Positions 29,008 to 37,103 of a stretch of DNA of 64,000 bases are shown here, piece after piece (position 1 is the first letter of the stretch; each line of letters opens with the position of its first letter). Under the pieces are notes generated by a model that saw only the letters and a list, made by a program, of their open reading frames with translations, was not told the DNA's origin and made no database searches. The position numbers and the translations under genes are program-made. The DNA lies in NCBI GenBank assembly GCA_004022145.1, contig RCNU01000002.1. One strand, written 5' to 3'. The stretch is from Paecilomyces variotii. Lineage: Eukaryota.

Positions 29008-30510
29008 TCAAACTGGATAGTGATCGTGGTAAAACTCCAGCTCATCATCAGAACGTGATCTTTTGGGCCGGGGGCTTGACGTCCATGATCTCTTCGACTC
29101 TTCCGTGGTCTTATCCTTATCAGAGCGGGAGCTCCTCCTGGATAGAGAAAGGACTGATGGCAAAGAGCGGATTTTGGTCATAATGAGACTGAGTGACAGT
29201 TTATCGAGATGTCGAGCACACGGAGGAAGACAAGCGACCTGGAACCCCACTCCGATCTCGACGTATGTCCAGAAAAGGATGATGGAAACAATTCCTATCG
29301 TGAGTTCCGGTTAGCAGCCGCATAGGGACAGGATATAGAGCGAAGGAAGGTGTTCATACCTTCTTGATCAATCGATGGCAGGCTCGTATGGAGGACCTTC
29401 GTGTACTGATTCGTAGTTCCCTGGACTTGTATCTGGATCCAGACGATCATTCTCAAGAGTCCTGCAACCACAGCGCTACAGAAGGGTCAGTATCGATATT
29501 ACCGCACCGAACTATCTAATCCAGGACGGACTTACAACACACTGAAGAGAAAAACGAGTGATACTTGGAGTTTCTTCCAAATGCTCATGTTCAGCGTTCC
29601 AACCTGACGACGTGTTAACAAACCAATTTCATACAATGCTATGCTGGTTCGATTTACATACCATGCAAATTGGCTCGATCAAAATCGCAAGATCCAGGAC
29701 CCAACTGAAGACTGCGCAACCGGTTTGCATCGCGAACGTGTTTACGCATTTAGTACGGAGCGAAGTGAGACTGGACCAGCTCACAGCTGGGTTTGAGCCG
29801 CACGCAAATATTTCAAAGAAAAGGAACACGACTGTCCACATGGTGACAAGGATGATGAGAGTCCAGTTGACATAGTCAAAGGGGGTTCTGAAGGCGCGGC
29901 CTGGTTTCCCAATGCAGGGAATGGTCAGTTCATATCCATCATAATGCGGTCTATCTTGTTTCTTGAGGAATGGCGACTTACCCTTGAATATGCGGCGAAA
30001 CAAAAACAAGAGCGTCAATTTAATGAAACCAATAGTAAGCACATGGCCTATCCAGAAAGCGTATTCGAACTGATATCTCTTGCTTTAGTATTTCTCTCCA
30101 AGACTAGGATAGCCCGAGGAGACAGAAAACGGACCTTTCCAAGTTCATGTTGTTCTGTTGGGGTGATCCCTGGAATTGAATGTCCGCCGATGATGTTCAT
30201 TTGTGCTCCTATTAATGATATTCAGGATACAGCGTCGGGAGTTTATCGGCATAGTCTCTTACCTATTACCATAGCAACACCGGCAGCTATGGTAAGGAAC
30301 TACAATGAAGTATTAGCAGTTGAACATCTCTCGTCCAGCACAGGTAGTTGCTCCAAGACTTACGGCAGCAGGAACAATGAAAAGGTCATCGATTTCGACA
30401 TTTCTGGAATATCGCCGCCATCCGTATGCTCTGATAGCAAGCGATATGACGACAAGGACTGGAAATATGATACCAATGGCAGTCACACTGCCTTTATTAA
30501 CGTATGTCAT
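29008..30510 (-). CDS. PTH11-like (fungal rhodopsin-domain) integral membrane protein without CFEM, multi-exon
   Basis: Spliced: ...ISLAIRAYGWRR...IDDLFIVPAA|FLTIAAGVAMVIG|...|FEYAFWIGHVLTIGFIKLTLLFLFRRIFKG...FACG...C...SWVLDLAILIEP...FWTYVEIGVGFQVACLPP, a typical PTH11-family pattern. Confidence 0.8.
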
Positions 30511-31128
30511 GGTTATGGTGGCCTTAAGGGATAGACATCGACCGATACTTTCTGGAAAGAGTTGAGGATCGAGTCCTGATCCTATGTAGGCATTAAGGGC
30601 CAGTCCAGGTCTGTGCCTATGTACACGCCTGAAAGACCCATATATGTATTACAGCGCAAGGGATCTCGCCATCATGCAACTATGCCAGAGGGATCGTGAG
30701 AGGGTTCACAAGCCAAAGCGCGAATAATAATGAATACGTGTTTTGCATACCCTGCCTCATGCCTCATACTTTCCTCAGTTGGGAAATGGATATGCGAGGC
30801 CTAGAAGATGATGTTTTCAGTCCATTGGGTAGTAGCACACCGAATATGCGGTTACACTGCATGTCAGCAGCGCATAAGGAAACTAGGAATAGTTATTGGA
30901 CATAATCCTAGCTCAGTGTACGATATTGTGGGGGCTGAAAGGCAATTGATCTCGATAATCCAACTTGGGTTGTGCTCAGCCAGATCTGGAAAACCCCCGC
31001 ATCGGCATGGAGTAAGCAGGTCCTGCTTCAGCCCAACCGTGCGTGAGTGTTATCGGCGTTAACTATAGTTTAATCACATCAGGTGGCTATGTACGGAGTA
31101 CATACATACATGTACTACCTGCGAGAAT

Positions 31129-31300
31129 TTGGACCCCACGTAGCCATATGATCGGCATATCCCGCTTAAACCCAATAAAGTACTAAATTAAGAATTCTGC
31201 AGGTGGTACCAAACTTTTTATTTTTATTTTTATTTTTATTTTTTCTATATTGTGCTGACGATCTATAGTATCTTGGACCCCACGTGGATATGTGATGGGC
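31129..31300 (+). repeat. Duplicated 13-mer TTGGACCCCACGT (31129-31141, 31273-31285) in the divergent promoter
   Basis: Exact 13-nt match with partly similar 3' flanks (agccatatgatcggc vs ggatatgtgatgggc). Confidence 0.55.
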
Positions 31301-31456
31301 TACTATGTTCATACTGAGCCAGATGATGGTCTAAGTTAACCGCGACGCGGGCTATCATCAGCTTTCTACTCTTATCGAATCTGGCCACCTACAGTACTTT
31401 ATCGGTGCTACTAGCAGAAGGACGTCTCATCAATCCCGTCTTGAAAACACTGCGAG

Positions 31457-34703: not shown

Positions 34704-34869
34704 GACTGTATATCATTCCAGAGGGCTTGTGGTAGAACTAGCCTTCCAGATCTGTCCTCCTTCGCTACATCTTTCAGACAGAAAGTATACGACTCGCTTA
34801 GAGATAATAATACTCACTCTCTTTAACAACGCTGGCCCCTCGAGTCCAAGACCACAACAGAAATCCACC

Positions 34870-35150
34870 ATGAAGCAGTCCCTCTTTCTCACTTTCTTGC
34901 TGGCAGCTCTTGCTACAGCCGTGCCGATCGCTTCTGGTAAGCTGCAAAATCTGTATTACTTGCATTATCCGCAGTGAGCTCACCAGATGATTCTCTAGCG
35001 GTAGAGCGCCGCGATGGAACGACCGAGTTCGATCCCGATTTCGGATTCAAGAAGCGCGATGGTACCACCGAGTTTGACCCTGACTTTGGGTTCAAGAAGC
35101 GGGACGGCACGACTGAATTCGATCCTGATTTTGGGTTCAAGCGCACTTGA
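34870..35150 (+). CDS. Kex2-processed repeat protein / fungal RiPP precursor (signal peptide + 3x DGTTEFDPDFGF), 72-80 aa, 2 exons
   Basis: Exon 1 34870-34936 encodes signal peptide MKQSLFLTFLLAALATAVPIAS; GTAAG donor at 34937; acceptors at 34974, 34986 or 34998 are all in frame. Exon 2 reads ...VERR-DGTTEFDPDFGF-KKR-DGTTEFDPDFGF-KKR-DGTTEFDPDFGF-KR-T-stop. Confidence 0.93.
35013..35144 (+). repeat. Three 45-nt coding tandem repeats
   Basis: Units start at 35013, 35058 and 35103; within the 12 peptide codons they differ only at third positions. Confidence 0.95.
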
Positions 35151-35778
35151 TGCGAAGCTTCGATTCAACGACAAGATTCATGACTGATGCTGGAGTTTGG
35201 GCCAACGGGATGAGGCGGGGAAGCGTTCGTTACCTGCATACATTACTTAGTTCTTAGTTTCTTGGCCTCATGAGAATGTCTAGAGTACTGTACTTGGAAA
35301 CATTAAAGTTGGCTCATCAGACGGCTTTTCGCTCGAAGCTATGTTCCCGCTATATTTTAGTCAAAATATGCACTGTATAAATAGTTAATCGCGCGGGGTA
35401 TCTGCGGCAGTACTCACTCCGTACATAGTACTCCGTACTTGTGCTTCTTGTAGATCACCAACAATGCATAGACTCTAGGGTATCATTTGCCCATAATAAT
35501 CCTACTAGCGTCTATCTACCCATCCGGGCTCTGTGCCTATGCAAGCGCCGGGATAAAAAGCAGACCAGGCTGTGTTACTTTCAGAGAAATAGCTAGGCTA
35601 TGGATATCTTGACTGCTTACTTGCATTCAGACAAAGGAAAAAGGTGGGGGCCAATTGCTCCCACCGTTGACTTCATATAACACCATACTTCAACGGATAT
35701 AAGAGAACGCGGCATCAGGAGAAGTTTGCCAGTCTCACTCTTGGCTCACAAGAGAGATAAACATATTCAATTAGCGCC

Positions 35779-37103
35779 ATGTCTTCTTCAATCCGCATCG
35801 CCATCTCTGGCGGTGGCCTGGCGGGCGCGGCCCTCATTCAAGCGCTCCTCCCCCATCCGCATCTAGATGTGCACATCTTCGAGTCGGCCACAGCTTTCAA
35901 AGAAGCTGGTATGGCCTTTGGAGTCGCTCGCAATGCACTCACTGCTCTTGATCTCATCGGACCGTCAGCGGCACAATGTCTCGAACGGGCTGGTGCCGTT
36001 CCCATGCGAGGAGTCCGGTTCATGCTTGCCCAAGGCGAAGGAGCTGGCAGCATGATCGATGAAACAGACAACGATGGACAGCGCGTCACCAGCATCGTCC
36101 ACCGTGCTGCTTTTCTGAAAGAATTACTGGCTAATGTCCCTCAAGAGCGCATGCATGCTTCCAAAAAGCTTGATAAATTTGACTGCAACAGCGATGGCTC
36201 TCTTACGCTCCATTTCACCGACGGGACTACCCACGAGTGTGACATCCTCATCGGCGCTGATGGAATCCGCAGCACTGTTCGCAGACTTATCCTCGGAGAG
36301 AACGACCCCGCGGCCTCTCCCAGGAACACTGGCACGTGGGCCGTTATGGCTTTGAAGCCGTATGCCGCAGCTCAAGCCAGCATCGGCGAGGGACCCGTCA
36401 ACATCGAGGATGCCCGCGAGTATATGTGGATTGGAAATGGAGCTTACTTGATGCACAACGTCTTAAACCAGGGCCAGCTGGTGCAGTTTGTCATTGCTGT
36501 ACACGAGAAAGATGCAGAGTCATCGGACCGCTGGCATCGGACCGTGAGCGCTGATGAGATCAAGAAGATCTACCAGGACTGGCCGCCGCATCTATACAAG
36601 GCTGTGACCGAGGTGCGTTCTATCTCTCTTGCTTTATCTTATTCGCTACTGACGAGAGATTATTGTAGCTACTCTGTGACCAGCCCGAACAACCCGCCAT
36701 GTACCTCTGGGAACATCCACCCGCGCGCACCTACGTCTCTGGCCCTATCGCCATCATGGGAGATGCTGCTCATGCCACTTCTCCTTGGCAGGGATCAGGC
36801 GGTGGCATGTCCATCGAAGATACCCTCATTCTCTCCACATTGCTCAGCCACGCAAAGACCCCTAGTGAAGCGCAGATCGCCTTGAAGGTATACGACCAGG
36901 TCCGGCGCCCACGCACACAACGTATCGTTGAGTCAAGTCGAGGCACAGGGTTGATCGCGCTCGGCTTGGGTGAAGAGACGAAGCTGGACCTGGGACAACT
37001 GAAAGCGAAGTTGTTGCCAAGGTGGGATTTCATTATAGATTTCGACAACAAGAAGCACCGTGACGAGGCTCTAGAAATATTCCAGAAGGAGTTGAAGTCT
37101 TGA
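35779..37103 (+). CDS. FAD-dependent monooxygenase (group A, salicylate-hydroxylase-like), 2 exons
   Basis: IAISGGGLAG, LIGADGIRS, IMGDAAHATSPWQGSGGGMSIED, YDQVRRPR; intron 36613-36668. Confidence 0.9.

Follow-up and report, generated by a model that had tools for sequence, protein, structure and literature searches.

The 64-kb window analyzed here, a stretch of contig RCNU01000002.1 from Paecilomyces variotii (assembly GCA_004022145.1), harbors five intron-containing genes between positions 29008 and 37103. These encode a seven-transmembrane (7-TM) protein, two DUF3328 oxidases designated UstYa-A and UstYa-B, a precursor peptide, and an FAD monooxygenase (FMO). A first-pass annotation had marked out this ~8-kb gene set as a candidate dikaritin-type cluster for a peptide that is ribosomally synthesized and modified after translation (RiPP), and all five genes were found where it had placed them. 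Gene models were built from reading frames and splice signals and then compared with RNA contigs; the introns throughout are short and of the GT..AG type. The genes are organized as follows.

29008-30510, minus strand: 7-TM gene (Fung_rhodopsin / PTH11-class), 8 exons, 351 amino acids
31457-32510, plus strand: UstYa-A (DUF3328 oxidase), 5 exons, 260 amino acids
32723-33748, minus strand: UstYa-B (DUF3328 oxidase), 5 exons, 248 amino acids
34870-35150, plus strand: precursor peptide gene, 2 exons, 72 amino acids
35779-37103, plus strand: class-A FAD monooxygenase, salicylate-hydroxylase-like, 2 exons, 422 amino acids

Both UstYa genes are located ≤3.4 kb upstream of the precursor gene and are convergent with each other. 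The precursor gene itself comprises the elements below.

34870-34936, plus strand: exon 1, signal peptide
34937-34998, plus strand: intron, 62 nt
34999-35150, plus strand: exon 2, repeats
35013-35048, 35058-35093 and 35103-35138, plus strand: three core copies, each DGTTEFDPDFGF, 12 residues, identical as protein

The N-terminus of the precursor is hydrophobic across residues 3-25 as judged from hydropathy. The order encoded by exon 2 is ERR, then core, KKR, core, KKR and core, and finally KRT-stop, so that the tandem cores are separated by dibasic sites, and the Tandem Repeats Finder detected a period of 45 with 2.9 copies (score 173) in this exon. These features, with boundaries of ERR, KKR, KKR and KR around three identical cores, bear out the signal-peptide/Kex2-repeat precursor described in the first-pass annotation. 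Compared in pairs, the core copies have 8, 7 and 8 mismatches per 36 nt, and all 23 of these fall at third codon positions. Eleven of the 12 core codons are present in more than one synonymous form, and there are no amino acid changes among the copies. As the copies are identical as protein while differing at third codon positions only, the core peptide is under purifying selection and is not recently duplicated. The computed [M+H]+ of the linear core peptide is 1347.54. Only two proteins in the database matched the repeat exon, both 72-aa hypothetical proteins from Paecilomyces lecythidis (98%) and P. variotii No. 5 (92%) that are orthologs of the precursor (P0001 and P0002). The core copies in P. 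variotii No. 5 differ at positions 3, 8, 10 and 11, with one Tyr at position 10. An ESM Atlas search with P0001 produced a top score of only 0.82, which is a lead at most.

Transcription was assessed with contigs from four runs aligned to the window, which can neither rank expression nor show its absence. In the X4 run, a cDNA metatranscriptome from a food fermentation, at least 15 joints with GT..AG ends on the strand of the gene concerned cover all five genes. These joints account for the seven introns of the 7-TM gene (as CT..AC), all four UstYa-A introns, with intron 2 at 31901-31975, and the single introns of the precursor and FMO genes. Two of the four UstYa-B introns are among the joints listed (33460-33519 and 33287-33345); the remaining two are placed only from homology, the reading frame and their GT..AG ends. 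At 35336, X4 also shows a loose end of the precursor transcript that is poly(A)-like. The X10 run includes a spliced transcript of the precursor, 512 nt long, in which 34764-34935 and 34998-35337 are joined and which is 100% identical to the window, as well as spliced FMO pieces, such that the FMO intron joint is seen in both X4 and X10. The X10 contigs match the window without differences (five of five pieces at ≥99%), and the species label of this run is that of the DNA runs that cover 99-100% of the stretch. An untranscribed precursor had been named in the first-pass annotation as grounds for abandoning its reading; spliced precursor transcripts were found in X4 and X10. Contigs from the X2 and X3 runs, although labeled as RNA, were discarded as expression evidence because they are long, unspliced and probably DNA carry-over. 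They are 95-99% identical to positions 29000-37200 with many substitutions and small indels, and indicate that food-fermentation samples contained DNA from a closely related strain.

The exon organization of the two oxidase genes is as follows.

31457-31706, 31781-31900, 31976-32094, 32164-32242 and 32296-32510, plus strand: UstYa-A exons
33748-33520, 33459-33346, 33286-33171, 33093-33003 and 32919-32723, minus strand: UstYa-B exons

Both proteins possess the intact paired HxxHC motifs attributed to them in the earlier reading: HMLHC (158) and HWDHC (188) in UstYa-A, and HSLHC (148) and HADHC (182) in UstYa-B. A comparison with PF11807 that had been proposed at the same time placed both proteins above the cut-off of 25 bits: exon pieces of UstYa-A scored 29.1, 26.1 and 56.3 bits, and the best piece of UstYa-B scored 55.4 bits with two shorter pieces below the cut-off (15.9 and 17.9 bits). 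Each protein displays a single N-terminal hydrophobic transmembrane segment by hydropathy (~36-67 in UstYa-A and ~31-65 in UstYa-B) and two non-motif cysteines after the second motif. The introns are at equivalent positions in the two genes, and the proteins align with 33% identity over 255 aa (E 5.7e-37), a level of identity low enough to identify them as old paralogs. In its last exon, UstYa-A has 96% identity with a P. variotii protein, and the Aspergillus species A. melleus, A. steynii and A. ellipticus have orthologs with 63-68% overall identity. In the five orthologs P0003-P0007 both HxxHC motifs are invariant, as are C202 and C229. An AlphaFold2 model of the ortholog P0003, built on a five-row alignment, had a mean predicted local distance difference test score of 40.3 in which only the transmembrane helix at 33-71 was confident, and a search of PDB sequences with P0003 gave no hits at E≤1. 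DUF3328 proteins are reported to be membrane-anchored, disulfide-linked dimers that depend on O2 and a reductant, and whose HxxHC(x)nHxxHC motif binds two coppers (passages in PMC12435403). The reactions attributed to them in the same source include C-H hydroxylation, halogenation and macrocyclization, and CctR, AprY and ApnU are precedents there for copper/O2-dependent dimers. By analogy with the topology of CctR, the catalytic domains of the UstYa proteins would be lumenal.

The repeat exon was used in a HMMER search against 1.84 billion representatives (E≤0.001), which returned 42 hits. Twenty-five share the architecture of the precursor and, with P0002 from a separate search, constitute a family of 26 members; three looser relatives (P0138, P0154 and P0155) were left out of this count and the other 14 hits were dropped as unrelated repeat proteins. 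The family architecture consists of a signal peptide, a pro-region with R as its last residue, and two to four units of DG-x-T-E-F-D-x-D plus three to four mostly hydrophobic residues, each unit being followed by K, then by a short spacer and K/R-R. Across 20 aligned members there is no variation at R, D, G, T, F and D and almost none at E and the middle D, and most of these members show the hydrophobic N-terminal pattern. The N-terminus of the core is set by cleavage after R. Seven of the 26 members and all four distinct metagenome precursors described below end exactly after the hydrophobic tail and, as these precursors stop there, the core is a 12- or 13-mer with its C-terminus at this tail. 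Some members have Tyr at core position 10 or 12, and P0129 ends in LAF. The family is widespread and has probably been catalogued before, though not characterized. Full-text literature searches with fragments of the core motif retrieved nothing relevant, in agreement with the earlier remark that the core was not recognizable as that of any characterized product, and the family appears to be previously undiscussed in the literature.

A metagenome scan with the precursor-family alignment identified nine loci that fall into four distinct groups, the loci L002-L006 being 97-99% alike and L008 being equivalent to L009. Locus L007 extends for 1 kb and is too short for a judgment of linkage. In each of the three independent groups with flanking DNA the precursor is beside a UstYa gene or fragment. 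Locus L001 carries four of the cluster genes within 8 kb in an order and orientation unlike those of the window.

7695-8711, minus strand: L001 UstYa-A-like gene
Within the same 8 kb: L001 two-repeat precursor, core DGTTEFDPDFAF
12178-13437: L001 FMO ortholog, 65% identical
14051-15405: L001 7-TM ortholog, up to 57% identical over 121 aa

A tblastx comparison of L001 with the 64-kb window revealed nothing else in common beyond those four genes. Loci L002-L006 have one UstYa gene (motifs HNLHC and HLDHC) that is divergent from, and 1.7 kb upstream of, a three-repeat precursor. In L008/L009 (L008 9530-10117) the C-terminal half of a UstYa gene, retaining HLDHC only, abuts a precursor that has no visible signal exon and a truncated first unit; this is probably a decayed locus. 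The neighbors of the L008 locus encode ankyrin, protein kinase and HeLo domains. An alpha/beta-hydrolase gene (Abhydrolase_6) is located 5-7 kb upstream of the precursor in L006 (3495-4727, minus strand) and L008 (1675-2793, minus strand), the latter also being S33 aminopeptidase-like. This hydrolase could be a trimming peptidase; no counterpart was found near the window cluster.

The silent-only differences among the core copies and the recurrence of the precursor-UstYa pairing in independent loci argue that the locus reflects more than chance. The same pairing bears on the proposal that the locus specifies an ordinary Kex2-processed repeat protein (KEP) from which linear peptides like pheromones or hormones are secreted without modification, with the UstYa genes being neighbors by descent or acting on another substrate. 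As 78% of KEPs have no DUF3328 neighbor and many of these are linear peptides according to the survey in PMC7329392, and as Tyr is missing from the core, this proposal merits attention; moreover, DUF3328 enzymes are described as acting on products of nonribosomal peptide synthetases (NRPS) and polyketide synthases (PKS) as well (passages in PMC12048977; PMC12435403). However, in the window as in three of three independent groups with flanks, a UstYa gene is situated ≤2 kb from a precursor of the family, no NRPS or PKS was detected among 39 scanned open reading frame (ORF) pieces of the window nor in L001, and X4 contains transcripts of all five genes together. Peptides that leave the cell unmodified are accordingly considered quite improbable.

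The FMO and 7-TM genes have the following exons and introns, respectively.

35779-36612 and 36669-37103, plus strand: FMO exons
29295-29359, 29476-29535, 29604-29661, 29901-29981, 30070-30134, 30209-30262 and 30300-30363, minus strand: 7-TM gene introns (model in frame)

The FMO matched PF01494 on the C-terminal exon (43.1 bits versus a cut-off of 22) and has an N-terminal GGGLAG sequence at residues 10-15 (GxGxxG). The nearest PDB sequences are those of salicylate hydroxylase 6bz5 (E 2.9e-23), TropB, AfoD and SorC, with E values ranging from 1e-19 to 1e-23. The 7-TM protein matched PF20684 Fung_rhodopsin (43.1 bits versus a cut-off of 27, E 4.7e-11), has approximately seven hydrophobic segments, and starts directly with the first of these. 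The CFEM domain of PTH11 proper was not found, and the N-terminal ORF piece at 30313-30648 has no Pfam family. The class-A relatives of the former protein and the segments of the latter uphold the FAD monooxygenase and PTH11-like membrane gene of the first-pass annotation. The FMO is 94% identical to a P. lecythidis protein. Among the matches listed, the identities of FMO homologs are out of step with taxonomy, being 85% in Lachnellula arida and 78% in Hymenoscyphus fraxineus versus 76% in A. steynii and 73% in A. melleus, a hint that paralogs are involved or that the gene or module has been transferred.

Overall, the precursor architecture, paired HxxHC motifs, transcription and splicing, selection on the core, and linkage between precursor and UstYa genes agree in denoting a candidate dikaritin-type cluster. 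Thus, the interpretation in the first-pass annotation is sustained by a repeat precursor alongside DUF3328 genes with HxxHC motifs in a conserved linkage, and the locus is probably a UstYa-dependent RiPP locus of Paecilomyces, genuine, expressed and conserved in evolution. Several points weigh against this interpretation. We infer the modification of the peptide, as well as its processing and product. The core is devoid of Tyr, which is the cyclization residue of ustiloxin, phomopsin and asperipin, whereas 65.6% of the repeats of DUF3328-linked KEPs contain Tyr according to PMC7329392. The X10 contigs show the precursor and FMO but not the UstYa or 7-TM genes, which is not evidence of silence. 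A promoter motif common to the cluster was not found when three intergenic regions were compared: these share only three 8-mers, a number equaled by 33 of 300 random region triplets. The FMO homologs are numerous, with 432 at E≤1e-20 across Pezizomycotina and 65-94% identity among the matches listed, and such wide conservation could mean a general catabolic role. No signal peptide or transmembrane segment was identified by sequence in the FMO, which would therefore be cytosolic and in a different compartment to the lumenal UstYa domains. Finally, neither the FMO nor the 7-TM gene is present in the flanks of L002-L006, which extend for 10 kb on each side in L005 and L006.

The wide conservation of the FMO and the absence of both genes from the L005/L006 flanks counsel caution about their membership of the cluster. 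A unit that consists only of the precursor and UstYa oxidase(s), with the FMO as a catabolic enzyme of salicylate-hydroxylase type and the 7-TM protein as one of many PTH11-class paralogs, both being bystanders, is rather unlikely but deserves consideration given that the FMO homologs, spread across several Pezizomycotina classes, are source-named salicylate hydroxylase among the matches listed and that the protein is predicted to be cytosolic. Against this, L001 keeps exactly these four genes in another order and orientation with nothing else in common with the window, which is the argument that the FMO and 7-TM genes belong to the module. Furthermore, the FMO gene adjoins the precursor gene in P. 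lecythidis (consecutive locus tags 007257 and 007258, respectively), precursor and FMO are the two genes seen in X10, and, as weak evidence, the FMO homolog and UstYa-A ortholog of A. steynii and A. melleus are on equally long contigs. On balance, inclusion of the FMO and 7-TM protein in the module is favored. The FMO would possibly perform a late hydroxylation of an aromatic ring, and the 7-TM protein would possibly act in transport, self-protection or sensing.

Dikaritin precursors undergo Kex2 processing in the Golgi and are cyclized by UstYa homologs (as described in passages of PMC9233826 and PMC7329392). In the UstYa-dependent pathway proposed for the window, the 72-aa precursor would enter the endoplasmic reticulum via its signal peptide. 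In the Golgi, cleavage of Kex2 type after RR/KR and trimming of the trailing Lys would release three 12-mers of the core, and UstYa-A and UstYa-B may oxidatively modify the peptide before or after cleavage. The two oxidases are envisaged as type-II membrane-anchored lumenal enzymes whose paired HxxHC motifs would form a binuclear copper center. In the core, the acidic half, which is invariant (D1, G2, T4, F6 and D9), is probably a recognition element or the site of chemistry, and the variable hydrophobic tail (phi-x-phi) may generate product diversity. A Tyr-O-C-beta ether ring is impossible as there is no Tyr in the window core. The most likely chemistry would be functionalization or cross-linking of a Phe side chain at a C-H position as in victorin, or hydroxylation or desaturation; T4 and F6, both invariant, may be alternative modification sites.

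The victorin core is without Tyr and has a phi-x-Phe end. The window core shares both features, and the pathway in Cochliobolus victoriae similarly has a signal-peptide Kex2-repeat precursor adjoining UstYa-family genes. In contrast, the window core has 12 residues with an invariant acidic N-terminal half, and the copper amine oxidase and halogenation-associated genes of the victorin cluster were not seen. As victorin is cyclized between the C-terminal Phe and the Leu two residues upstream (reported in PMC9233826) and the tail of the window core is phi-x-Phe, a victorin-like Phe-based link is plausible, victorin being the closest chemical precedent. The ustiloxin and phomopsin clusters resemble the window in the signal peptide, the KR-separated repeats and the presence of at least two UstYa proteins with paired HxxHC motifs (as portrayed in PMC7329392 and PMC9233826). 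However, these products have a Tyr phenol ether to Ile, and their clusters a tyrosinase and methyltransferase, whereas no tyrosinase and no cluster methyltransferase was found in the scanned ORFs of the window; conversely, a class-A FMO and a 7-TM gene are co-conserved in the window-type locus. The asperipin-2a cluster is minimal, comprising a precursor, one DUF3328 cyclase (AprY), a reductase and a transporter. The window cluster is likewise compact, and the UstYa enzyme AprY alone cyclizes asperipin-2a as a copper/O2-dependent dimer (passages in PMC12435403). Nevertheless, the accessory genes differ and the asperipin-2a core is Tyr-rich and made bicyclic via Tyr side chains (reported in PMC9233826).

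A five-gene definition of dikaritin clusters by Ding et al. that includes a tyrosinase, methyltransferase, peptidase and transporter is quoted in PMC12048977, and later definitions recounted in the same source need none of these four. No tyrosinase, methyltransferase, peptidase or transporter was detected within 29-37 kb of the window. The locus fits the operational definition of a repeat precursor together with DUF3328 genes with HxxHC motifs, and departs from the first definitions in respect of Tyr and the tyrosinase/methyltransferase features. Among 7878 KEPs catalogued by Umemura in 2020, 22% have DUF3328 neighbors (1758 genes) with a peak at the adjacent gene (PMC7329392). As so many DUF3328-linked KEP genes have been counted already, the locus will not surprise specialists. 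One type in that survey, G-6 (#13), has several Asp residues in its repeat profile; of its 49 members, 46 have DUF3328 neighbors, and the type spans 19 genera, including Aspergillus, Penicillium, Talaromyces, Histoplasma, Blastomyces, Emergomyces, Hypoxylon and Monosporascus (as given in PMC7329392). All eight of these genera are also among those with close FMO homologs. Type G-6 is described there as Tyr-rich (PMC7329392), whereas the window core has no Tyr, though other family members do. By its description, type G-6 may correspond to the precursor family. Among the papers listed in a literature search, Paecilomyces/Byssochlamys was not found paired with DUF3328 or KEPs, and was paired with ustiloxin only in two general surveys. 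The locus is an uncharacterized UstYa-type RiPP candidate of a known class and a good discovery target.

Among the characterized RiPPs that depend on UstYa are two antimitotic mycotoxins, ustiloxin and phomopsin, as well as victorin, a host-selective toxin, and Paecilomyces is a genus of heat-resistant food-spoilage molds. Given this habit and the transcription observed in the X4 food fermentation, the modified peptide may be made in food settings, without any claim of toxicity. With cores that lack Tyr and an acidic half that is invariant, the precursor family offers a conserved and tractable system for copper-dependent DUF3328 chemistry on non-Tyr substrates, and the locus allows one to ask if fungal RiPP pathways involve a class-A flavin monooxygenase and a 7-TM protein. 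A more speculative reading, and a very improbable one, is that the UstYa-modified 12-mer is an extracellular signal for which the co-conserved PTH11-class 7-TM protein is the receptor, the locus being a peptide-signal system and not a toxin pathway. The invariant DG-x-TEFD-x-D half would then be kept for receptor recognition. If true, this would provide the first ligand for a large orphan class of PTH11-like receptors and a RiPP-receptor gene pair conserved across genera.

A Pfam scan covered 39 ORF pieces across the window out of 108 ORFs of ≥110 aa. Tyrosinase, like NRPS and PKS, was not found among the 39 scanned pieces. In these pieces the flanks of the cluster are housekeeping or regulatory, which is in accord with the description in the first-pass annotation of ordinary flanking genes: a proteasome subunit, an FtsJ methyltransferase, a DEAD-box helicase and a phytochrome histidine kinase, in addition to an MFS transporter, a protein kinase, a Zn2Cys6 factor and DNA polymerase delta. 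The MFS_1 transporter gene (42827-44284, minus strand) lies 5.7 kb downstream of the FMO gene; it could export the product and is not conserved in L001. The phytochrome-type hybrid histidine kinase (21640-25743, minus strand; PAS_2, GAF, PHY, HisKA, HATPase_c and Response_reg) is ~3 kb upstream of the cluster and probably unrelated to it. HFCD enzymes are Cys decarboxylases in bacterial RiPP pathways. An ORF of 640-673 aa at 39292-41313 (minus strand) has a partial Flavoprotein domain of HFCD type (PF02441) and repeated 'LEWW'-like units at the C-terminus; the window core has no Cys, and L001 has no homolog of this ORF. A low-complexity run at 31209-31252, which was skipped as a repeat when the reads were aligned, lies within the promoter region that separates the 7-TM gene from UstYa-A.

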